From: a virus
Taxonomy: Duplodnaviria > Caudoviricetes
Strand: one strand, 5' to 3'
Length of the DNA: 64,000 nt
Virus record (IMG/VR): IMGVR_UViG_3300044614_001923
Under the pieces are notes generated by a model. That model was given only the letters and a program-made list of their open reading frames with translations. It made no database searches and was not told the origin of the DNA. Each line of letters opens with the position of its first letter. The first letter of the stretch is position 1. The position numbers and the translations under genes were made by a program. Below are positions 9,132-21,619 of the stretch, in pieces.

Positions 9132-10925
9132 TTACCATGCCCAAACACGGACAACACCATTTCCACCAGCGCCAGAAGGAGATCCTGGAACAGTATTTCC
9201 CCCTCCTCCACCACCAGGAAATCCTCCGTTAGTTGGAAGAGTGGAACTATTTCCACCATTTCCGCCCGCACCCATAGATGAAGCATAAAGACCACCTAAA
9301 GGTCCACCTCTTCTTAGAGAAGTTCCTCCAATTCCTGCGTTTGCTGCTCCTCCCGCTCCAGGTCCAATTACGGAACTTCCTCCACGAGAAGATACTGATG
9401 CGGTGCCTCCACCAGCTCCAGCTGCTGAAGAATAACCATGACAACCTGTGTTTACTGCTGCTGAAGGTGCTGTGATATAAAAATCTCCAGCATATTGAAG
9501 ATTTCCATCGCCACCATAACCACCTCCAAAATTAGTATTTCTAGCTCCGCCACCACCACCAGCTCTTACAAAGTTATCTGCTGCAACTTCAAAAGAACTT
9601 GGTCCACCATCTTGACCAGTAGTTGTTGTAGAATTTGTTCCTCCTAGTCCTACAATTACAGAGGAAACATCTGGCAAATCTTTTGCTCTGAATAATCGTT
9701 CAACTACACCTCCAGCTCCTCCTCCAGAACAGGTAGATCTTGAATTTCCCGCTCCTCCTCCACCAACACACTGAACATATATCCAATTTGCTCTAAATGG
9801 AAGCGATGCTTGATTGAATGTACCAGAAGAAGTAAATTCTTGCAGATAAGTTTGAACGGTGCTAGCAACACCAACTAGACCAGAACCGTTTCCATAAAAT
9901 GTTGTTGCTGTAATAACACCTGTAATATTTGCACTTGCGCCAATTCTAATATGTTGACTTGTTTCTAAGTCTCCATTTACATATTCTGTTGTTCCTTTAA
10001 GACCTGGATATCCAACTTCTAATACATAATTTGGAATAGTTGTTGAACCAATTCCAACCTTACCATCTGCAGTTGCAGTGATAACTGTTCCTCCAGATCC
10101 AACCGTAATTTTTGGAACTTGAACGTCAGTGTAAGCATTAAGAATACCTACGTTTAACTGATCAGTATCTGGGGAATAATTTAAATTAGTATCTGTTCTT
10201 AATTCTTCTGCTCCAGTTGCTCCATTTACAAAAGTAATGTAGTGTGCTCCAGAGTCAGTACTTGCACCAACAATAGTTGCAGTTGTTGCGTTACTCGCTG
10301 TTCCAGTTAAACTGCCAACAAATCCGCCAGTGGCAGTAACTACGCCACTAATATTCGCATTTCCTTGTACTGTTAATTTCCATGGAGAATTGGTTGTTCC
10401 AATTCCAACATTAGCAGTCGTATGAACACCTGTTGCTGTTTGTTGGAAGTAATTTTGCTCATCAAATGCACTAATAGTTACAATTCCAGATCCTGCTGAT
10501 GTTCCAGATGAAACAATGGTGATATTTGTTCCAGCAACAATTTGAGTTACAATTCCAGTAAGAGATCTACCATCTCCTCTATAAGAGAGAGCAGTGACAA
10601 TACCAGTTGCTCTTAATCCTTGAGCATTAACTGTAACTCCAGATCCAACCTGAAGCTGAGAATCGATGGTTGTGACTCCAACAATTCTCAGATTATTTGG
10701 GATATATGTTACAGCAACACCAGCATTTTGTAAATATCGACCATCTCCATAATAAGTAACAATTCCAGATAAAGAATCAGATGTTGCTGTTATAAAACCA
10801 GCAGTTACTTTTACCGTACCTAAAGTTGTTACTCCAGTTACCCCAGAAACTACGAGACCTTGATCAAAGGTTGGAGATGAACTTCCAGATTTACTTCTGA
10901 TTGTATTAACCTGAATTATAGACAT
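9132..10925 (-). CDS. Tail fibre protein with glycine-rich C-terminal domain
   Basis: MSIIQVNTIRS N-terminus; VGIGTTN modules; C-terminal FTSSGTF..VQCVGGGGAG...GGNGVVRVW Gly-rich domain. Confidence 0.85.
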   Translation of the reverse strand: MSIIQVNTIRSKSGSSSPTFDQGLVVSGVTGVTTLGTVKVTAGFITATSDSLSGIVTYYGDGRYLQNAGVAVTYIPNNLRIVGVTTIDSQLQVGSGVTVNAQGLRATGIVTALSYRGDGRSLTGIVTQIVAGTNITIVSSGTSAGSGIVTISAFDEQNYFQQTATGVHTTANVGIGTTNSPWKLTVQGNANISGVVTATGGFVGSLTGTASNATTATIVGASTDSGAHYITFVNGATGAEELRTDTNLNYSPDTDQLNVGILNAYTDVQVPKITVGSGGTVITATADGKVGIGSTTIPNYVLEVGYPGLKGTTEYVNGDLETSQHIRIGASANITGVITATTFYGNGSGLVGVASTVQTYLQEFTSSGTFNQASLPFRANWIYVQCVGGGGAGNSRSTCSGGGAGGVVERLFRAKDLPDVSSVIVGLGGTNSTTTTGQDGGPSSFEVAADNFVRAGGGGGARNTNFGGGYGGDGNLQYAGDFYITAPSAAVNTGCHGYSSAAGAGGGTASVSSRGGSSVIGPGAGGAANAGIGGTSLRRGGPLGGLYASSMGAGGNGGNSSTLPTNGGFPGGGGGGNTVPGSPSGAGGNGVVRVWAW

Positions 10926-10988: not shown

Positions 10989-13900
10989 TTATGCTTGTGT
11001 TTCAATCCAAGTAATACGACCAGATACCAAGAATGGAGATGAACCTCTAATCAATGCGGTATCGATAGGTTTAACTGCAAGAGTTAATACATCTGGACCA
11101 TCTGGATAAAGTCCATCACCACCAAGTACAGAGTTTCCAAGTGTTGCAACTCCATCAAGACCTACAGTTGTTCCGTTCAGTCCTCTCTTGAGAGTAACTC
11201 CTTCAAGTGAAGCTCCACCTTGAGCTCTGAATGAATAGACAACCTGACCACTAGAATAAGTGTCTCCAACTTCATGTTGACAATATTGACTTAAACTTGG
11301 GGAACCAACTTCTTCCCATTCATCACTAGAAAGTTTAGCATTAACGATGAGAGAAACTTCGCAATCGTGAGTTGTAAGAACATTTGCTTCTTTAAGTAGA
11401 ATTTGCATTCTATTAATAATTTCTCTAAAACCAACCTTTCCTGTTGTTGAATTGTCCGCAGAAGGAGCAAGTCTGATTGAAACCAGAGGAATAAATTCCT
11501 TGAGAGTTTCAGCAGTTCCAGAGAATGCATAGAAAGCAAAGTTAGTAGTTCTAGTTACTAACGCTTCCTTATCCATAAAGATTCTATAATCGTCTCTTTG
11601 GCGGTTGGTAATAGTAGCTTGCTCAATTTCAATTGCTGTAATACGAGTTCCTGCTTCAAAGATACCTGTAGTTGAACCTGTGATTTCTTCACCAACAACT
11701 AGAGTTTGTCCCTCTGTTCTATTAATAAATGTAACTACAGTTGAACCTACGCTTGTCTGACCAGTTGGAACTACACCATTGTAGTTTGCAATACCACCAT
11801 TAGTGAATGGAAGAACCTTAGAGTCTGCACTGAAGTGATAAACTCTATCTTGGTCAAACTTGCCATCCATGATGACAGATACGCCCCAGTGATATAGTGA
11901 TGGTGAGAAGAATGGGTCATCTAAGGTTTCAACTTCATATCTGACAGGTAAGTTACCAGATCTAAAGTATGCTTCAGTGAATTGGTTATTATGTATAAAC
12001 TCATGACAATACTTAATTTCACCCTCTTGAGTCTTCATACCAAATCTGATAGTTCCAGCGCCATACCAGGAATAATCCATGTAAAGCATTTGAATTCTAT
12101 TTGTATCAATCTGATATCCACTGATACCAGTTCCATCCATTCTATCAATATTCCATTCACTTTGAGGTACAATAGTATCAATAACTTTACTTGCGGTTAC
12201 TCCACTGAGAGTCTTAGATCTATATGCTGGTTGTACATACATTAGATCGTCATCTAAGATCTTAATAACCTTATATGTTTGACCTCTAAGAATAATTCTA
12301 TCAAACTCTCTAAGTTGGGTAGTAAGTCTTGCACGACTTCCTCTAATCAGATACTCTCCTTTTTCGCAAGTAAAGGAACCAGCAAGTTGTTGAGTATTTG
12401 ATCTTCTTACAACAGATAGAATGTCTCCATCAAACTGGAAGAAGAATCCATTTTGATCATCAAACATACCAGCTTTAAGGTATGCGTCTCTCCAATTTAC
12501 TACGTTAAATACAGGGAATCCTTCAAACTTAGGATCTTTTAATGGTGTAGGAGTTCCTATTCTAATATTAAAATCATCAATAACTTCTTCAATTGCATAC
12601 TCACCATTCAATTCTACTGGATAAGTTGCATTTAGAATTTGGAACTTCTGATCATCGTCAAATGGCGCTTCAGTTGAAATACCATGTGGCCATTTTGTTG
12701 TGACAATCAAGTTAGTTGAAACTCCAACTTCTCCTTGAATTTGAACTTTTTCAATATCATATGTTGGGTTGAAGTTCAATGCCATTGAGCACTGAATACC
12801 CTTTCCTGCTTGATAGCGGAAATACTTTCTTGTTTGCCTAATCAATTGAGAATTAGGAACAAGACCTGCAACAAGTTGTACAGCACCGTCAAATGGTCTA
12901 TGAATTACTTTACTGTCACTGACTGCATACAATCTACTAGGAATGAAGTAATTTGCACTTTCATTGGAGAATGATGGTTCATCCTCAAGTTTAATAACAG
13001 TATTACTCTTTACTTGAACAATCTTAGATTCAAAATAAGTTCCTGGTCCAACGTTTGTACCAACTCCAGATCTATTCTTATAGATTCTGAAAGTATCGCC
13101 AGCAGAGAAATCAGTATAGAAATTGGTATTCTTTCCAGTTACTGTTTCCGACTCAGTATTAATTCCAATTGTACCAGGACCTTGAATAAATCCTTTAATA
13201 CTTCTAGAAATGAATGAATGAGTAAGTGTTGAACCCAAAGAAGTATATACAATCAGATCACTATTATCAACATCATTAAATCTATTGATCGCAAGTTCTT
13301 GGTTTGTTGATAAACCAATATGATTTGAATCAAGAGTTCTTACAAAATAATCAGCATTGTCAGTTAGACCACCAATAACAGCGGATCCATTTGAAGTGTA
13401 TCTGATTTTAGTTCCATCTGCAAGTTTATGATCAATAATTCTAAGCCAATTGGAATTAATTCCAACTCTGGTAGTATCTCCACCAGACATTGTATTGATG
13501 ACTTCTGGAACTTCTACGGTACTATAAAGTGTAAATGCATTTTCAGCATATCCTGTTGAAGTAGTTTCAACATCTTTTACTACATACGTATCGTCAGCAG
13601 CTCCATCGGTATCAATAGTGATAGAATGTGTTCCAATTCCACCTTGACTTGTAAATGATGTAATTCCACAAATCTTAACTGAAGCGGATGTTACACGCTT
13701 GTTAAAGACATTAAGACGATTCTTAGTTGTTGGTACAGCAACTGTAATATAAGTTAATGGATTTCTTCTACGTACTTTATATCTTCTCCAGTAGTACCAC
13801 CAATACCTTCTTCTCCATCTTCTTCTCCATCTTCTACTATAGTAGTAATAATAAAAATATGCAGTAGAAATTCCTACAATCTGGTGAATACCTTGAATGA

Positions 13901-16187
13901 GAACGTTTTCAGCAGCAGTTCCTTCATATCCACTGACTTGAGCATACCCATAACGGAATAGACCTGCTGTGTGAGCAGCGCCAGTAATACAAGTAATTGT
14001 TGCAGTTGCTCTTAATCCTCCCGAATAATTCCAGGAATAAATGTCAAGACTTTCTTGTTCACGAGCAACTCTGAATCGATCATTTGAGATTAGACCATCA
14101 TCAGTTTTTGCATAGAAATAATTATCAGCTGTTAATCCTCCTATAGGAGTTCCAGTGGTTGTATTATATCTAAGTCTTTGATTGTTTGTTAGTTCAGCTC
14201 TAGGTGGATTAGTAATTCGAATTGTAAATGCATTTGGTCCAATTAAAGAAGATGTAAATCTATGATAACCATTAAGAGTTCTAAATGAATCATTTGGATT
14301 CTGAATATTCAGAACTAATTTGTTTCTTAGTCTTGCATCTCTATAATTATAGAGTTCATACCAATTATCTCCAATATCACTCTTAACATTTCTAATCAAA
14401 TAATCTGTGTTATTTGCTAATCCAGATGGAGTTCCACGAGTTCCTGTATTAGTTGTATAGCGAACAGTTTGAGCAGTTCTATAACCTTCTGTGCTAAATC
14501 CTACATCCTGAGGAAGATAGATTGAATGCTGCAGTGGGTGATCAACAACCCGAGATGCCGCAACAAGTCTATCGTCATTCATGTAATAGGTAAGGTAGTA
14601 TCCATAATACCAGTAGTAATACCAATACCAACCCCACCACCAGTACCTATAATATCTTGCTCCAGGTACTCTAATCTGATACTCATTTAAGATGCCAGTA
14701 ACTTTATATGTTCTGTATAGATCAGTCGACCAATTTCCTCTTGTAGTAGTAACACCAATATTTCCAGTATTCCACTTACTAAAGAAGCAAATATTATCAC
14801 CGTATTGCAATCCGTGTGGTTTTGCAAACGTAATGGTTCCTCTTCTATCTACACGGGTGATTCTACCACCATTTGCTTTAATTAAACGGTGAGTTCCAAA
14901 ATCATTAGTTCCTCTAGTTGTTGGAGTTATTGCTGGATCATTAAAATCTCCAGCAACTCTAAACGAAACGAAAGTATATCCAGAACCAACTTGTACATCA
15001 CTGACTTTTAGTGGATGATAACTGGAAATTCCTGGTCCAGGAAAACTGTTTCCTCTGGGCGTATAGAACATAACGACGTCATCATTTTCAACAAGAATAT
15101 TCTTGCCGTTTCCATACTGCTCATCCTTATAGATATAAATTCTTCCAGCATTTGCTTCACCATTAATCTTCCAGTTTGCTCTTGGAACATTCCATTCTTG
15201 ACTTCCAATCCAGTTATCCTCAATATAAGGAAGATTTGCAAGATAAACTGAAGAAATTGGAGTAATTGCAACTCCAGGACCTGGAGATGGAATTGTTGAT
15301 TGGTAATATGTTTCGTTTTGGGTTTCAACGTTTGTAGGACTTTGGAAATTATATTTTTTTGTTGCTCTACTTTTCTTGAGGAAGAGTTTTGTTCCCTCTA
15401 CAATACCAGGAATATTATCTGTTGTAACTCTAAACGTTGACGCAGCGCCAGTGCTTGTCTGAATATCTAGAACTTCAATTGTTGATCCAGTATAGAAAGA
15501 TCCTGGGAAAATAAGAGTAAACTCTGTGTCTAACTGAAGAGTTTTATTGGATCTAAATGGAATCTTAACAGCAAATGTTGTGTCATCAGGAACATCTCTA
15601 ATAATAAAGATACCTTCATACTTTGGATCTTTAAGACCTTGAATGTCTACTACAGAACCAATTTTTAAATTATGAGGTTCTGGGGTCTGTACTACGATAT
15701 AATCGTTACCATCATCTACTTTTACAGTAAGAGCTTCAATATTTTCTTCTGGAATACCTGAAGTATATGAAGTTGGGATATTATTAACTAACTTAACAGT
15801 TTCCCATTTAGTAGTTTGAGTTCCATATTCAAAATCAGTATCAATTAGGGATTGTGGCTCAGATACTCTTAATTTTCCAACAGGATCAAGTAAATGCTTA
15901 GTTGGGATTATTTCAATATCTTCTTTTTCATAATAAATTTGGAATGAATCCGTAGATGCCATTCCAACAGTATTATATGATAAATCAAACGTTGTTTGAT
16001 TTAGTGGAGCATTGTAATTTACTCTGACTGTAGTATCAGGATCTGCAAAGCTGTATACCGCAACGTTTCTGGTTGAGTTTACAATGGATAATAATTTTGG
16101 AAGAGGCACATATCCTTTTGCTGTAATAATACCAACAGAAGGAGTAAAACCAATTATTTGATTACCATAAATTAATTGTCTTGCCAT
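10989..16187 (-). CDS. Giant virion structural protein (paralogue of 48331..53211) with Y/W- and R/W-rich inserts
   Basis: Shared blocks with the 1626-aa protein: LIDTDFEYGxQxTKWE, RPFDG..QxxRQTRxYFRYQxGKG, MDYSWYGAGxIRFG, RSGNLPxRYE, SxRLAPS.D, GGDGxYPxGPDVLT; repeated IGGLTxNxxYxV domains. Confidence 0.8.
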   Translation of the reverse strand: MARQLIYGNQIIGFTPSVGIITAKGYVPLPKLLSIVNSTRNVAVYSFADPDTTVRVNYNAPLNQTTFDLSYNTVGMASTDSFQIYYEKEDIEIIPTKHLLDPVGKLRVSEPQSLIDTDFEYGTQTTKWETVKLVNNIPTSYTSGIPEENIEALTVKVDDGNDYIVVQTPEPHNLKIGSVVDIQGLKDPKYEGIFIIRDVPDDTTFAVKIPFRSNKTLQLDTEFTLIFPGSFYTGSTIEVLDIQTSTGAASTFRVTTDNIPGIVEGTKLFLKKSRATKKYNFQSPTNVETQNETYYQSTIPSPGPGVAITPISSVYLANLPYIEDNWIGSQEWNVPRANWKINGEANAGRIYIYKDEQYGNGKNILVENDDVVMFYTPRGNSFPGPGISSYHPLKVSDVQVGSGYTFVSFRVAGDFNDPAITPTTRGTNDFGTHRLIKANGGRITRVDRRGTITFAKPHGLQYGDNICFFSKWNTGNIGVTTTRGNWSTDLYRTYKVTGILNEYQIRVPGARYYRYWWWGWYWYYYWYYGYYLTYYMNDDRLVAASRVVDHPLQHSIYLPQDVGFSTEGYRTAQTVRYTTNTGTRGTPSGLANNTDYLIRNVKSDIGDNWYELYNYRDARLRNKLVLNIQNPNDSFRTLNGYHRFTSSLIGPNAFTIRITNPPRAELTNNQRLRYNTTTGTPIGGLTADNYFYAKTDDGLISNDRFRVAREQESLDIYSWNYSGGLRATATITCITGAAHTAGLFRYGYAQVSGYEGTAAENVLIQGIHQIVGISTAYFYYYYYSRRWRRRWRRRYWWYYWRRYKVRRRNPLTYITVAVPTTKNRLNVFNKRVTSASVKICGITSFTSQGGIGTHSITIDTDGAADDTYVVKDVETTSTGYAENAFTLYSTVEVPEVINTMSGGDTTRVGINSNWLRIIDHKLADGTKIRYTSNGSAVIGGLTDNADYFVRTLDSNHIGLSTNQELAINRFNDVDNSDLIVYTSLGSTLTHSFISRSIKGFIQGPGTIGINTESETVTGKNTNFYTDFSAGDTFRIYKNRSGVGTNVGPGTYFESKIVQVKSNTVIKLEDEPSFSNESANYFIPSRLYAVSDSKVIHRPFDGAVQLVAGLVPNSQLIRQTRKYFRYQAGKGIQCSMALNFNPTYDIEKVQIQGEVGVSTNLIVTTKWPHGISTEAPFDDDQKFQILNATYPVELNGEYAIEEVIDDFNIRIGTPTPLKDPKFEGFPVFNVVNWRDAYLKAGMFDDQNGFFFQFDGDILSVVRRSNTQQLAGSFTCEKGEYLIRGSRARLTTQLREFDRIILRGQTYKVIKILDDDLMYVQPAYRSKTLSGVTASKVIDTIVPQSEWNIDRMDGTGISGYQIDTNRIQMLYMDYSWYGAGTIRFGMKTQEGEIKYCHEFIHNNQFTEAYFRSGNLPVRYEVETLDDPFFSPSLYHWGVSVIMDGKFDQDRVYHFSADSKVLPFTNGGIANYNGVVPTGQTSVGSTVVTFINRTEGQTLVVGEEITGSTTGIFEAGTRITAIEIEQATITNRQRDDYRIFMDKEALVTRTTNFAFYAFSGTAETLKEFIPLVSIRLAPSADNSTTGKVGFREIINRMQILLKEANVLTTHDCEVSLIVNAKLSSDEWEEVGSPSLSQYCQHEVGDTYSSGQVVYSFRAQGGASLEGVTLKRGLNGTTVGLDGVATLGNSVLGGDGLYPDGPDVLTLAVKPIDTALIRGSSPFLVSGRITWIETQA

Positions 16188-16234: not shown

Positions 16235-19200
16235 TCAAATACCAAAGATAATTGAAATTCCGTTGACAAAATTTCTAATACTTTGATTTCTAATATAAAG
16301 ATTTGTTTGCATGGTTGCAATACCAGTCACAGCAAGATGCTCTGTAGTTAAAACACCATCAACATCTATATTTTTTAAGAATCTAATGTCTTCAGCGAAA
16401 GTTGAGTATCCAACAATTCTATCAACATAGATATCCGAGAAAGTTGCAACACCAACTACAGAAAAGTCTCCGCCAATATTAACTGATTTTTCAATTCCAA
16501 CACCACCTTTGATAACAATAGATCCTGAAGAAATTCCACTGGATTCTGTTGTATTTGCAAATGTTGTTATTCCATTTATTAAAGTTCTTCCTTGAACATA
16601 TAAAGCAGTGCCACTAATTGCTACAGTTGTACCAATACCAACACTAGATGTTGTAACAAGACCTACTCCACTAATGTCTCTCTTCCAAACGTCGGATACG
16701 TTGAATAGTCCCGATCCATCTCCAGTGAAAGTACCAGACCAAATACCAACAAAAGTATTTCCAACCTTAATAGCACCAAATTGTTCCCACTCGTTATCTG
16801 TAGTGTAAACCCATCCTAAATGACCTCCACTTTGGGGATTTGAATTAAATACAACATCGCCAGGAGAACCAATGTCACTAGGAGCAGAAACTCCAACTGT
16901 ATATTTCTTAGATGTTAGTTGATTTCCCTGTAAGTATAGTGATACCGCTTCAATTCCCTTATCTGATGTTGAAGTTAGTCTGTTAGAGAATACTACTGGT
17001 CCATCAAATCTTGATATAATGTTTCCGTCTGGTCCACCTTCAACTTTGACTGATCTACTAATTGTAACTTCTAATGGAGATAATACATCAAAACCAATAT
17101 TAATTCCTTGAATATCTAAATCTTCACCAGTTACAGTAGGAACAGGTGCATTAAACACTTCTTCCTGACCAGTTGCTGAGTTAATCTTTTTATTTCCGAT
17201 GAAGAAAGAACCTTCTCCATTCATTGCTGTATAAACAGCAACGCCACCATCCATTTTTAAAGAAGTTGCAGCAATCTCTTCTGGTCCAGATAGTTTTCTA
17301 TCTTGACGATCTGGAAGAGAAGTTGAATAGTTTCCTGGTCCAAATCCCAGATATTCAAATGTATGCCCAGATGCCCTGATGATTGAATTCCTACGTAGTT
17401 CAATTGGAACTGGATTTATTTTGAATACTTTTGATCCGATTAAATGTCCACTCTTAAATGTTCCAAGAACACCTCTAAACACTGGAATTTCATTCTGAGT
17501 AACATTCTCTCTAATTCTAACAATTTCATCATCAATTGCTAGATAATCTCCAATTTTTAGACCCAGATTAACTGCGTTAAAAATTACAATGTTATCAATG
17601 TCTGGACCTGTAACTTCTCCATAAAGTGTTGTAGTAATTCCAGCATAATATGGAACCATTCTGCCAGAAATATTTTCATTTTTATTAGTTACTGATCCTG
17701 CATTTGAGGTTAATGCTTCTCTATATGCGTATATTGTTCCTGTTGGAATAGTAGTTGTTTGTACACCAACATTCAATTCAAATTGAGTTTTACTAATAAC
17801 TTTTTTAACAATAAAATCATCATTGTAAGATGATATAGAAGCACCACCTATTTTAACTTTATTATTGATAGCGAAACCATGCGAACCACTTGAAGTGAAT
17901 GTTGCAATTCCAGTATTAACATTATATCTGATCGATGTTATTCCTACAGATGGAGAACCTAGAAGTGCATATGCATTTAGTGTTGCAGTAACACCAATAC
18001 CTGTTCCAGGATTTGCAATTTCAACAAAATGAGCTGACTCTACATCAATTGAAGTACTTGCTCCAATTGATATATTTGTGATTCTATATACGGTATTATA
18101 TTGATCCAGTGTGTCAGGAATAATACCTTGAACACTTAAAACATCTCCAACATTATTGTAAATTGATGTTACACTGACGATACCGATAGTATGTCCAGTT
18201 GTTGTTGCAATTCCAACTACTGCAAGTGTATTTCCAACTCCATAAGCACTTCCTCCATCAATAATATTAACATCTAGAAGTCCTCCACTTACGCTATCGA
18301 TTCTTACAATTGCAGTAGCATCACTACCAACAACGGTTGTACCCAATCCAACAAGTCTAGCATTATAAAATACCTCACTTACTCCAATACCTGTACCATA
18401 ATTTAATCCAGAGTTTGCAATGGATACTTTTGTAATTGCATTTAATCCATGATCATGTTTTGTGGTGATTGTATGATTGTATCCTCCAACACTAGAAGCA
18501 ATATTCTGAATGTCAATTCCATTTTTAGAATCAATAAAATTCTTATTAATTGTTTCTTTAGTAACGCTTCTCTGAGGATCATTTAATACTACCTGACCAA
18601 TTGTAGATCGAGAAGCAAATGATCTAGATGGAAGAGGATCTGAATCAAAATTATCTCGGTTTATTTGTGGATAAAGATTTTCAATAGGTTGACCAAACTT
18701 ATATACATCAAAAGGAGATATATTTGGAGAATTTGATGCATTAGTTACTACAAGGTGATAAACACCATCCCTTTCTCCAGGTATATAACTTTGTATCTCT
18801 TGAACTCTATATACGACATAAGTCTCTTTATACTTTGTTCTTGTTAGATATGGAAGAGCAGTTGTTCTTGTTGATATATCATTCTGGAAGATTCCAGGAT
18901 TGGTTGTTAATGCAACTGTAAATCTTCTTCTAGTAGAAACACTCAGTACAGTAAATTCTCCATTAAATCCAAGATCATCTGTTGCGCTTAGATTTTCAAT
19001 ACTTGAAATATTTTTTAAGCGAACAGTGTTACCTGCTGTCAATTTATGAGGAAGTTCTGTAGTAATTGTTGCAACTCCAGAATTCCAGGTAGCGTTAGAA
19101 ATGAATCTAAAATTCCTTAATTCGTAAGTTGAATTTAATTCTTGATTATCAGTACTCAGATACTTAAGAATTTCTTCATCTGTTTCTGCTGTAGTGGTGC

Positions 19201-21619
19201 TGGATTCTTGAATAACATAACCATCAAGTGGTGGTCTTGCTAGTAAGAAACCTCTTGGAATTACATATCTTAAACGATAAATTGAATCAGAGAATGATCT
19301 AGTATCAGGTGTACGAGTAATATAAGTTCTTGCAGTAGCTTTATATGTAAGATCAGATATTGCATCTGTTATTGTATCAGTTGTTTGTGATATTTGAATG
19401 TACCATTGATTATTTGAAGAATCATATTGAATTGGATGTCCAATATCACCAGATTTTTTATCAGATACTCTACTGATTAACTTTAACTCAGATGTTTCGT
19501 TACTGTATATTTGCGTTTCTTGTCCAATAGTTGCTTCATTCAATGATTTAGCAAGTTTTATCTGTGTTGATCCAATTCCAGTTGCAACATCATTTGTAAT
19601 TACATAATACAAATTATTATTTGTCAGACCATCTGGAAGATGTCCAGTATCGGACATTATCCTGACGGTCTCTCCATTTTCAAAATCATGTGGTGCTTTA
19701 AATGTGATAATATTATTTGTTATTGAATTAGATACTCCATTGATTTTTTTAGAAACAATAGAAACTTTCTCTGAAGTATTTTCATTACTTCCGCCACTCA
19801 TTATAACTTTTGAGGAGTATAATTGAGATAAACCAGACTTAGTAATATTAATATTGATTAATTCATTTCTCTTTGCTCCAATTCTATATCCATCAGAAAT
19901 ATAATCTGGGATAATATCTTGGTTTAATTGATTATAAAGATATAATCTACCTGGAGTAGTTGCTGCATTAGTATTTTCTATATCAATTTGATAGAATTCA
20001 ACTGAGGTCTCTCTTTCCTCATTTTCTCTTGGTGGAATTACGTGAGTAATATATCCATAATCATCTCTTCTAAATGCAAGAGGTCTAAATCCTTTGGATA
20101 CAAGAGAAACAGCACCAAAGTTAGAGTTGGAGTTTGTGATTGAAAGATCACCACCAGATTCCGCAACAAAGTGATTTGCATATCCAATTGCAAATACTGA
20201 TACAATTTGGATAAAAGCATTATTTGATGCTTTGATATGGAAATTTTCTGATTCTGGTTTATATCTTGCTCTTGAATTAGAATACAAGTTAGAAACAGAA
20301 GTATTATCTAAATATGATCCTGTTTCATCATCATAAAGAACAAATGCATTATCATCTTTTTGCAGACCAATTCCAGTGAATTGGGCGACTACCATACTTT
20401 TGAATCCACTTGCCTTGCTTCCATCAGCATGTAATCCGCACATGCCAAATACTGAACGGAGTGAAATATTAAAGATGTATGGAGATGCTGAGGTCACAGT
20501 ATCACTAACAAGAACTAGAGATGCATTTGCAGTTGCATCTGCAGTTGGAGCAGCAATAAGTGGAGGATTCTGTACTTGATAACGAATTACCGATGAACTA
20601 ACAACTTCACTTATAACAAATTGTCCATTATAACCACCAGAATCAACATTTTGAATTTGAATAGGCGTATCTACATCTAGACCTGAAAGTGGTTCTTGTA
20701 ATTCTACAGTAATTGTTGTGCTAGAATCAATTGCATTTCCTGCATAAATTGAAGATATTAATGTCTCTTCTCCAGTTGATCCAACAATTCTAAATTCATC
20801 AACTTTAGTTTGAACATCAATACTTGTTGATGGATAATCTGGAAATATATTTCTTCCACTTGACTCGCCATATGCCAAACCAATTTTTTCATAATACATG
20901 TCAAGATCTGTTCTACCAGCATTAAAATTGCTGATAAAGTCATCATTGATTTTGACATTATTAACACCATCAGCGTACTCAAATACGGTTAATTTGTGGT
21001 GAGAAAAATTTGGAACAAATAGATTAGTTGTATAGTCTTTATAAATGTTTCCATTTGGAGCACCATCAAGAATAGTGAATTGCCAAATATAGGAAGAACC
21101 AGTTAATCTAAAAATTGCAGATCTCTCGATTTCATTATTTTGAGGATCTGGAACGTATTTTGGTCTAATTCTAGTTTTTCTGAGGTCTAATCCAACAATA
21201 GATGTTCCTCTTGGAATAATTACTCCACCATGAACACTATTAAACTTGTATAATTGATTATCTTCAGAGTTTAAATTAAAATCAGAAGTTCCACTAAATG
21301 GTGGGAAATTACTTGAGGTATCACTATTTCTAAGTAAGAAATTGTTTGTACCATTAGGTATCCATCCAGGTCTATTATCTACAATGTGATCACCTGGATA
21401 TAGGAGAATTGTTGTCTTACCAAACCTATCATTATCCAGACCTCTTTGATAAGAAAATCTAGCTGCTTCAATTAATGCCCTTTGAATTGTTTTGAAAGGA
21501 CGAGCAAGAGAATTGCCTTGATTTTCTACACTATCTGTAGAATCTAGACTTGATGGGTCAACATATAATATTTCCCCTTTGATGTTCTTGAGAAAATTAT
21601 CTAAGCGGCTTAGACCCAT
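16235..21619 (-). CDS. Large virion structural protein with N-terminal parallel beta-helix-like region
   Basis: MGLSRLDNFLKN...ARPFKTIQRAL motif typical of pectin-lyase-like folds; repeated HGxxxGxxVxI beta domains; C-terminal fibre segment. Confidence 0.7.
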   Translation of the reverse strand: MGLSRLDNFLKNIKGEILYVDPSSLDSTDSVENQGNSLARPFKTIQRALIEAARFSYQRGLDNDRFGKTTILLYPGDHIVDNRPGWIPNGTNNFLLRNSDTSSNFPPFSGTSDFNLNSEDNQLYKFNSVHGGVIIPRGTSIVGLDLRKTRIRPKYVPDPQNNEIERSAIFRLTGSSYIWQFTILDGAPNGNIYKDYTTNLFVPNFSHHKLTVFEYADGVNNVKINDDFISNFNAGRTDLDMYYEKIGLAYGESSGRNIFPDYPSTSIDVQTKVDEFRIVGSTGEETLISSIYAGNAIDSSTTITVELQEPLSGLDVDTPIQIQNVDSGGYNGQFVISEVVSSSVIRYQVQNPPLIAAPTADATANASLVLVSDTVTSASPYIFNISLRSVFGMCGLHADGSKASGFKSMVVAQFTGIGLQKDDNAFVLYDDETGSYLDNTSVSNLYSNSRARYKPESENFHIKASNNAFIQIVSVFAIGYANHFVAESGGDLSITNSNSNFGAVSLVSKGFRPLAFRRDDYGYITHVIPPRENEERETSVEFYQIDIENTNAATTPGRLYLYNQLNQDIIPDYISDGYRIGAKRNELININITKSGLSQLYSSKVIMSGGSNENTSEKVSIVSKKINGVSNSITNNIITFKAPHDFENGETVRIMSDTGHLPDGLTNNNLYYVITNDVATGIGSTQIKLAKSLNEATIGQETQIYSNETSELKLISRVSDKKSGDIGHPIQYDSSNNQWYIQISQTTDTITDAISDLTYKATARTYITRTPDTRSFSDSIYRLRYVIPRGFLLARPPLDGYVIQESSTTTAETDEEILKYLSTDNQELNSTYELRNFRFISNATWNSGVATITTELPHKLTAGNTVRLKNISSIENLSATDDLGFNGEFTVLSVSTRRRFTVALTTNPGIFQNDISTRTTALPYLTRTKYKETYVVYRVQEIQSYIPGERDGVYHLVVTNASNSPNISPFDVYKFGQPIENLYPQINRDNFDSDPLPSRSFASRSTIGQVVLNDPQRSVTKETINKNFIDSKNGIDIQNIASSVGGYNHTITTKHDHGLNAITKVSIANSGLNYGTGIGVSEVFYNARLVGLGTTVVGSDATAIVRIDSVSGGLLDVNIIDGGSAYGVGNTLAVVGIATTTGHTIGIVSVTSIYNNVGDVLSVQGIIPDTLDQYNTVYRITNISIGASTSIDVESAHFVEIANPGTGIGVTATLNAYALLGSPSVGITSIRYNVNTGIATFTSSGSHGFAINNKVKIGGASISSYNDDFIVKKVISKTQFELNVGVQTTTIPTGTIYAYREALTSNAGSVTNKNENISGRMVPYYAGITTTLYGEVTGPDIDNIVIFNAVNLGLKIGDYLAIDDEIVRIRENVTQNEIPVFRGVLGTFKSGHLIGSKVFKINPVPIELRRNSIIRASGHTFEYLGFGPGNYSTSLPDRQDRKLSGPEEIAATSLKMDGGVAVYTAMNGEGSFFIGNKKINSATGQEEVFNAPVPTVTGEDLDIQGINIGFDVLSPLEVTISRSVKVEGGPDGNIISRFDGPVVFSNRLTSTSDKGIEAVSLYLQGNQLTSKKYTVGVSAPSDIGSPGDVVFNSNPQSGGHLGWVYTTDNEWEQFGAIKVGNTFVGIWSGTFTGDGSGLFNVSDVWKRDISGVGLVTTSSVGIGTTVAISGTALYVQGRTLINGITTFANTTESSGISSGSIVIKGGVGIEKSVNIGGDFSVVGVATFSDIYVDRIVGYSTFAEDIRFLKNIDVDGVLTTEHLAVTGIATMQTNLYIRNQSIRNFVNGISIIFGI

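Follow-up and report, generated by a model that had tools for sequence, protein, structure and literature searches.

The 64,000-nucleotide DNA of IMG/VR record IMGVR_UViG_3300044614_001923, from a virus of the Caudoviricetes (Duplodnaviria), encodes a tail-appendage structural protein of 1732 amino acids that carries a nearly pure tryptophan/tyrosine segment in its variable middle part. The whole 64,000-nucleotide stretch is called the window here, and all coordinates refer to it. The protein is encoded on the minus strand by the open reading frame (ORF) 10989..16187 and belongs to the virion structural protein family PHROG 5838; the segment, tract 1, occupies residues 511-535 (14583..14657, minus strand). 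Tract 1 is real, is read in the frame of its gene (frame 0), varies in length among close relatives, and sits in a loop of a small beta-barrel in the structural model. Comparison of homologous sequences indicates that it is read as Trp/Tyr in translation and kept aromatic by selection, and it is probably an adhesive loop that contacts the host surface. Trp is the rarest amino acid and, to our knowledge, runs of Trp are almost unknown in natural proteins; here a near-pure Trp/Tyr loop held by selection ranges from 0 to ∼50 residues among close relatives.

Composition of the Aromatic Tract

Read on the minus strand, tract 1 is RYYRYWWWGWYWYYYWYYGYYLTYY, in frame with ORF 10989..16187. Nineteen of its 25 residues are Trp or Tyr, including 13 Tyr, and two are Arg. 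The aromatic share of the protein outside tract 1 and a second, Arg/Trp/Tyr-rich tract is 10.6%, which gives a probability of ∼3e-14 per residue window for at least 19 aromatic residues in 25. The second tract, tract 2, covers residues 777-808 (13764..13859, minus strand). An earlier note on this DNA, made from the sequence alone, had counted 19 aromatic residues in 25 and had placed them about 240 residues N-terminal of an Arg/Trp insert in the same protein; the in-frame translation agrees on both points, with tract 2 starting 242 residues further on. The same note called tract 1 charge-poor, which is accurate for this phage and fails for its close relatives, where the variable half holds three to four charged residues.

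The N-terminal half of tract 1 is conserved as R-[YF]-Y-R-Y-W-W-W-G-W-Y-W, and its core, Y-W-W-W-G-W, is retained across five diverged sequences. The C-terminal half is variable yet aromatic, and is arranged around a position occupied by Gly, Asp, or Asn; this position and the conserved Gly are both consistent with turns. With two Arg in 25 residues, tract 1 lacks the cationic charge of antimicrobial or cell-penetrating peptides rich in Arg and Trp, a description that fits tract 2. An Atlas feature search with tract 1 returned scores of 0.77-0.78, under the level counted as a lead.

A messenger RNA hairpin over tract 1 (14575-14640, minus strand) folds with a z score of -2.07, and 7 of 200 shuffles fold as well; it forms because the GGTA/TACC codon pairs are complementary. 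RNA structure as a feature of the tract was rejected, as the second arm is not conserved in relatives.

Reading Frame and Selection

Four lines of evidence, from indel-free contigs, homologue conservation, codon-position variation, and simulation, indicate that tract 1 is translated as Trp/Tyr and that its aromatic character is selected. The contig evidence comes from assembled contigs of independent lake metagenomes rather than raw reads, so rare variants could escape it. Across tract 1, no letter is inserted or deleted in contigs from other lake metagenomes: one spans 13952-14900 with no differences from the window (run X8, record 10), and another spans 14172-14797 with eight substitutions, none inside tract 1 (run X19, record 6). 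The relative P0001 was recovered in separate Joint Genome Institute (JGI) and European Nucleotide Archive (ENA) assemblies. A variant strain from two other lake or freshwater samples carries eight substitutions at 14181-14481, six of them at third codon positions, and four of its substitutions are spaced at every third base within 10 nucleotides (14181-14190).

Among homologues, the variable sites of tract 1 fall at frame-0 codon positions 1, 2, and 3 in the ratio 11/15/21, and TAT/TAC flips are common. The third position of frame 0 is the second position of the +1 frame, so that the third position of the +1 frame would be its least variable. Homologues of 48-93% identity retain their tracts at the amino-acid level. 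The tract of P0001 differs from that of the window at 32 of 78 bases and still has 17 aromatic residues in 26, and the tract of P0002 differs at 21 of 78 bases and has 18 in 26. Random substitution at those densities leaves means of 5.9 and 9.1 aromatic residues, respectively, and breaks the open frame in ∼90% of cases; aromatic counts as high as those observed did not occur once in 100,000 simulations (P<1e-5).

The alternative that the true product is the +1 frame, owing to sequencing error or programmed frameshifting, or that the segment is bypassed, draws on how ordinary the +1 frame looks. Over tract 1 it reads as a Gly/Ile/Thr-rich sequence like that of normal fibres, and among 120 viral contigs with the core DNA motif TAYTGGTGGTGGGGNTGG (L169-L288) the longest ORF over the motif uses this Gly-rich frame 94 times and the Trp frame just four times, two of these being long ORFs. 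In the window, however, both flanks of tract 1 are in frame 0; frame 0 runs through the tract without a stop here and in four homologues, and the +1 frame meets a stop here and in L163. A third codon position that varies least, independent contigs that all lack the required indel, and the retention of aromatic residues far beyond the simulated counts would each have to be explained, and the shift would require four compensating changes of frame per gene across ten diverged homologues, which is implausible. A frameshift artefact was rejected on these grounds, and the alternative as a whole is hardly credible. The earlier note had named a frameshift or assembly error as the finding that would overturn its view of the tract; none was seen in the contigs, and its description of tract 1 as real, in frame, and unusual stands.

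Two other explanations for an odd in-frame segment were also rejected. A translational bypass element of the T4 gene 60 type finds no in-frame stop in tract 1 here or in the four homologues. An in-frame mobile insertion of the Rickettsia palindromic element type is at odds with tandem 6- and 12-nucleotide units and with a 20-nucleotide motif, common to tracts 1 and 2, that is found only in those two tracts within the 64 kb. Six-frame translation found other Trp/Tyr-rich stretches elsewhere in the window, and all of them fall in the -1 frame of a real gene. Trp and Gly tracts mirror one another across a shift of frame, a relation that may be relevant to how the tracts originate. For annotators, the ordinary Gly-rich appearance of tract DNA in the +1 frame means that a tract may be misjudged as the result of a frameshift error.

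Distribution and Length Variation

In a tree built from the tract-free C-terminal 870 residues, the protein of the window falls in a fully supported clade of ten proteins with three subclades, whose branching order the tree leaves open. Tract 2 is present in all ten, and tract 1 occurs in two of the three subclades that share it. Tract 1 has 25-26 residues in the subclade of the window, P0001, and P0002, and 45 and ∼50 residues in the subclade of P0004/L001 and L081, respectively. It is absent from the subclade of P0005-P0009, which has a loop of 9-10 residues between the same anchors (R-Y-x-R ... F/Y-x-x-x-D-R); a short loop was therefore already in place, and tract 1 is its expanded form.

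The longest version, at L081:840-1010 on metagenome contig Ga0209557_1001713, is a tract of ∼50 residues that is mostly Trp, with a Gly every four to six residues. Few natural coding sequences known to us are as rich in Trp. Tandem Repeats Finder (TRF) detects a 12-nucleotide tandem period with 8.4 copies in its DNA. The window has a weak 6-nucleotide period in tract 1 and a perfect 12-nucleotide period in tract 2. On these patterns, the simplest reading is that tract 1 would have grown by slippage of short units. A shared origin of tracts 1 and 2 was considered and rejected, since their common 20-nucleotide motif and a seven-residue hhalign match (probability 7.9%) are explained by both being strings of Trp and Tyr.

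Fold and Loop Position

The structural setting of both tracts was examined in an AlphaFold2 (AF2) model of residues 425-860, built on a 14-row alignment with a mean predicted local distance difference test score (pLDDT) of 73.9. The domains around tract 1 are ordered in this model. Domain A (residues 434-550; 14538..14888, minus strand), which carries tract 1, is predicted to be a small beta-barrel with the fold shared by the Uba1 FCCH domain and the endosialidase barrels; domain B (residues 711-843; 13659..14057, minus strand), which carries tract 2, is predicted to be a second barrel of the same fold. In VIA-align comparisons, domain A matched Uba1 FCCH residues 180-261 with Z 8.1 and a root-mean-square deviation (rmsd) of 2.5 Å over 75 of 82 residues, and domain B matched residues 257-339 of the phi92 endosialidase with Z 8.9. 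Overall, the two domains matched the FCCH and endosialidase barrels at Z 8-8.9 and rmsd 2.3-2.5 Å over 75-82 residues, a Z near 8 being at the edge of what unrelated small barrels give. The LKA1 tailspike and a Klebsiella K1 capsule lyase also gave matches, in each case to an inserted barrel. A Foldseek search with the 436-residue model returned nothing at E ≤ 0.001, and a Pfam scan of the whole protein gave no family at E ≤ 0.01, whether E1_FCCH or similar. That both tracts fall in domains of one fold, as the earlier note had supposed, is thus borne out by VIA-align at Z ∼8.

Placement of the tracts within the barrels relied on the HGxxxGxxI motif, which in domain A reads HGLQYGDNI (residues 458-466; 14790..14816, minus strand), and on a shared 'VP' that ends strand 5. 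These fix the strand order in the model by succession of secondary structure rather than by superposition of coordinates. By this order, tract 1 lies between beta5 (QIRVP) and beta6 (RLVAASRVV) of domain A, and tract 2 continues beta4 and beta5 of domain B as a long beta-hairpin, modelled at pLDDT 51-66 and thus with low to moderate confidence. In the model, then, one type of domain bears both tracts, at neighbouring loops rather than at the same loop. The earlier note had put both inserts at the same position of the domain, and this part of it does not hold: one is in the beta5-beta6 loop and the other in the beta4-beta5 hairpin. A profile-profile comparison of domains A and B aligned only aromatic letters.

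Tract 1 itself has a pLDDT of only 29-36 and is effectively unmodelled; a tryptophan-zipper-like hairpin would be one candidate shape, with which the conserved Gly and the Gly/Asp/Asn position, as possible turns, are compatible.

Aromatic Tracts Elsewhere in the Family and Beyond

Tract 1 is one of many aromatic tracts in its family. With a tract defined as at least 10 Trp or Tyr in 20 residues, aromatic tracts occur in 21 of 147 distinct family ORFs and in none of 392 other ORFs of at least 200 amino acids from the same loci (Fisher 5e-13). P0004 has a further tract at residues 468-491, in a second loop of domain A in P0004/L081, while P0006, P0007, and P0008 have one in a C-terminal loop near residues 1500-1530, and L006, L036, L074, L080, and L108 have theirs at other loop positions of the same family. 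The tract bearers include marine relatives, with tracts at yet other places and a whole middle region rich in Trp, Tyr, Asn, and Gly. Taken together, the sequences show a family that repeatedly evolves aromatic loops.

Outside the family, two viral contigs, L270 (2-1813, minus strand) and L273 (5490-7766, plus strand), encode Gly_rich_2 (PF21722) proteins whose C-terminal glycine-rich domain includes a Trp/Tyr/Gly tract of 50-60 residues. Like tract 1, these loops are Trp/Tyr/Gly-rich, variable in length, and located in putative host-recognition domains; they differ in belonging to another domain and are unrelated to tract 1 in sequence, and independent origins therefore follow. No description of such hyper-aromatic tracts was found in the literature. 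The statement in the earlier note that no annotated equivalent was known remains accurate, as no annotation, Pfam family, solved relative, or paper was found.

Proposed Role and Alternative Explanations

The proposed explanation is that tract 1 is a translated low-complexity insertion of ∼18 near-pure Trp/Tyr residues that would expand the beta5-beta6 loop of an FCCH-like barrel, itself part of the variable middle of a tail-appendage structural protein encoded by a T4-like lake cyanophage. Tandem duplication of short TGG/TAY/GGN units would have made the tract grow and would keep changing its length, with selection maintaining its aromatic composition. Its likeliest form would be a beta-hairpin or three-strand meander with turns at the invariant Gly and at the Gly/Asp/Asn position, and its likeliest role would be to stick to the host envelope as an exposed contact surface, which may act by stacking on sugar rings or by insertion at the membrane interface. 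In this role it would add avidity beside the older Arg/Trp hairpin of tract 2. The roles put forward in the earlier note, a membrane anchor, a carbohydrate-stacking surface, an aromatic zipper, or crosslinkable tyrosines, are likewise candidate roles.

We infer the adhesive role, which is probable, from three observations: Trp and Tyr prevail in binding hot spots and at sugar sites, tailspikes have the barrel as an accessory module, and the tract turns over fast. Together with Arg, these two residues show the strongest enrichment in binding hot spots and sugar-binding sites, and fast turnover is typical of host-recognition surfaces. Several points weigh against this explanation. The tract has no modelled shape, the fold match of its barrel is a borderline one, its absence from the sister subclade P0005-P0009 means that it is not essential to the family, and so hydrophobic a stretch could equally be buried in an interface. 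The explanation as a whole, a slippage-grown and selected aromatic loop that serves as a host-surface contact, is given about an even chance.

Burial is the basis of one rival, in which tract 1 is an internal structural zipper that packs on its own copies in an oligomer, or forms cation-pi pairs with tract 2, and in this way makes the fibre stiffer instead of touching the host. Its extreme hydrophobicity would suit such a zipper, as would the fact that every protein with tract 1 also has the Arg-rich tract 2, and fibre proteins are commonly trimers. Against this, five relatives have tract 2 without tract 1, aromatic tracts occur at many unrelated sites in the family, and the free variation of the length of tract 1 and of its C-terminal half fits poorly with a fixed packing interface; the zipper is accordingly considered rather unlikely. 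A second rival shares the slippage origin of the proposed explanation and drops the function, regarding the tract as a by-product of replication that is tolerated in a loop. The 6- and 12-nucleotide tandem periods, the variable length, the absence from a sister subclade, and the lack of order in AF2 are all as a tolerated by-product would have them. Neutral expectation, however, falls far short of the observed retention of the open frame and aromatic composition, the Y-W-W-W-G-W core persists in five diverged sequences, and the enrichment in aromatic tracts is specific to the family, so that a functionless tract seems distinctly improbable. Tract 1 might instead be a scaffold on which phage enzymes modify Tyr or Trp by sulfation, cross-linking, or glycosylation. 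The 13 Tyr of tract 1 would offer such enzymes a substrate, but none of them is among the listed Pfam matches in the flanks of tract-bearing relatives, and the L081 tract is mostly Trp, not Tyr, which makes this scaffold very improbable.

If tract 1 is a host-contact surface, it represents a very simple route to binding surfaces, one that evolves through slippage; it would bear on changes of host range in uncultured lake cyanophages and could be a natural template for minimal aromatic binders. A broader and more tentative proposal is that Trp/Tyr(/Gly) tracts form a class of adhesive modules, not yet described, that is recurrently invented in the host-recognition proteins of aquatic phages. 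Such modules might arise by slippage of microsatellite-like TGG/TAY/GGN units in DNA that usually encodes Gly-rich fibre in the neighbouring frame, and their rapid expansion and contraction might retune attachment; at ∼50 residues, mostly Trp, the L081 tract would place them among the most Trp-rich natural sequences known.

Protein and Genomic Setting

ORF 10989..16187 matches the profile of PHROG 5838, 'virion structural protein', with E 5e-168 over residues 866-1422, a match over the conserved C-terminal core, and 531 relatives were confirmed among viral contigs. By tblastn, cyanomyovirus structural proteins match only the N- and C-terminal parts, at 33-41% identity. These PHROG 5838 proteins, among them those annotated in S-RSM4, S-RIM44, and Syn1, are homologous in those parts and have the same tail-gene neighbourhood as the window; those of cultured cyanophages cover only ∼45-52% of the query, and the family has no assigned function. 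Only a small freshwater clade has the middle part (residues 425-860), for which a library of 1.8 billion representatives contains just five clusters. A megablast search of phage records and a sequence search of the PDB gave no match.

An AF2 model of the conserved C-terminal core (residues 860-1732; 10989-13610) has a pLDDT of 77. In Foldseek it gave only weak multi-domain matches, both to phage tail proteins and to jelly rolls of the concanavalin type (heparin lyase I, Cel7A), which hints that the core may be a lectin- or glucanase-like sandwich.

The gene lies among the tail-fibre and baseplate genes of a T4-like phage. Its upstream neighbour (16235..21619, minus strand) encodes a tail fibre protein of 1794 amino acids (PHROG 529 / 4527), and its downstream neighbour (9132..10925, minus strand) encodes a protein of 597 amino acids with a Gly_rich_2 domain (PF21722). 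In all relatives, the Gly_rich_2 gene is followed by a small Phage_tail_APC gene. The window also encodes a T4-like baseplate hub/lysozyme, a tail tube cap, a wedge subunit, and a gp32-type single-stranded DNA-binding protein, and the stretch is present in lake-water metagenomes of 19 studies.

Comparison with Known Systems

The barrels of K1F endoNF and of the phi92 endosialidase, and the FCCH domain of Uba1, have the same fold as both tract-bearing domains, and they match neither domain at the sequence level. In tailspikes, the FCCH/endosialidase-type barrel is an inserted accessory domain. We know of no member of this group with a poly-aromatic loop.

The Y-W-W-W-G-W-Y-W core could plausibly be modelled on designed tryptophan-zipper hairpins, in which Trp residues pair across the strands around a tight Gly turn. 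Tract 1 differs from them in being natural, far longer, and aromatic on both faces, and its predicted shape has a pLDDT below 40.

In idea, tract 1 resembles the adhesins of T-even phages and the complementarity-determining regions (CDRs) of antibodies, both of which present short, variable contact loops enriched in Tyr and Trp on a conserved scaffold. The gp38 adhesins combine glycine-rich motifs, packed as a polyglycine-II sandwich, with hypervariable, aromatic-rich contact loops. No array of Gly-rich motifs was seen in the 1732-amino-acid protein, and Gly_rich_2 belongs to the neighbouring gene. The scaffold of tract 1 is thus a different one, and homology with gp38 or CDRs is not claimed; unlike their loops, tract 1 is near-pure Trp/Tyr, of low complexity, and changes by tandem expansion. 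Tract 1 is rated as an extreme form of a known principle, that of aromatic-rich variable contact loops, rather than as a new category.

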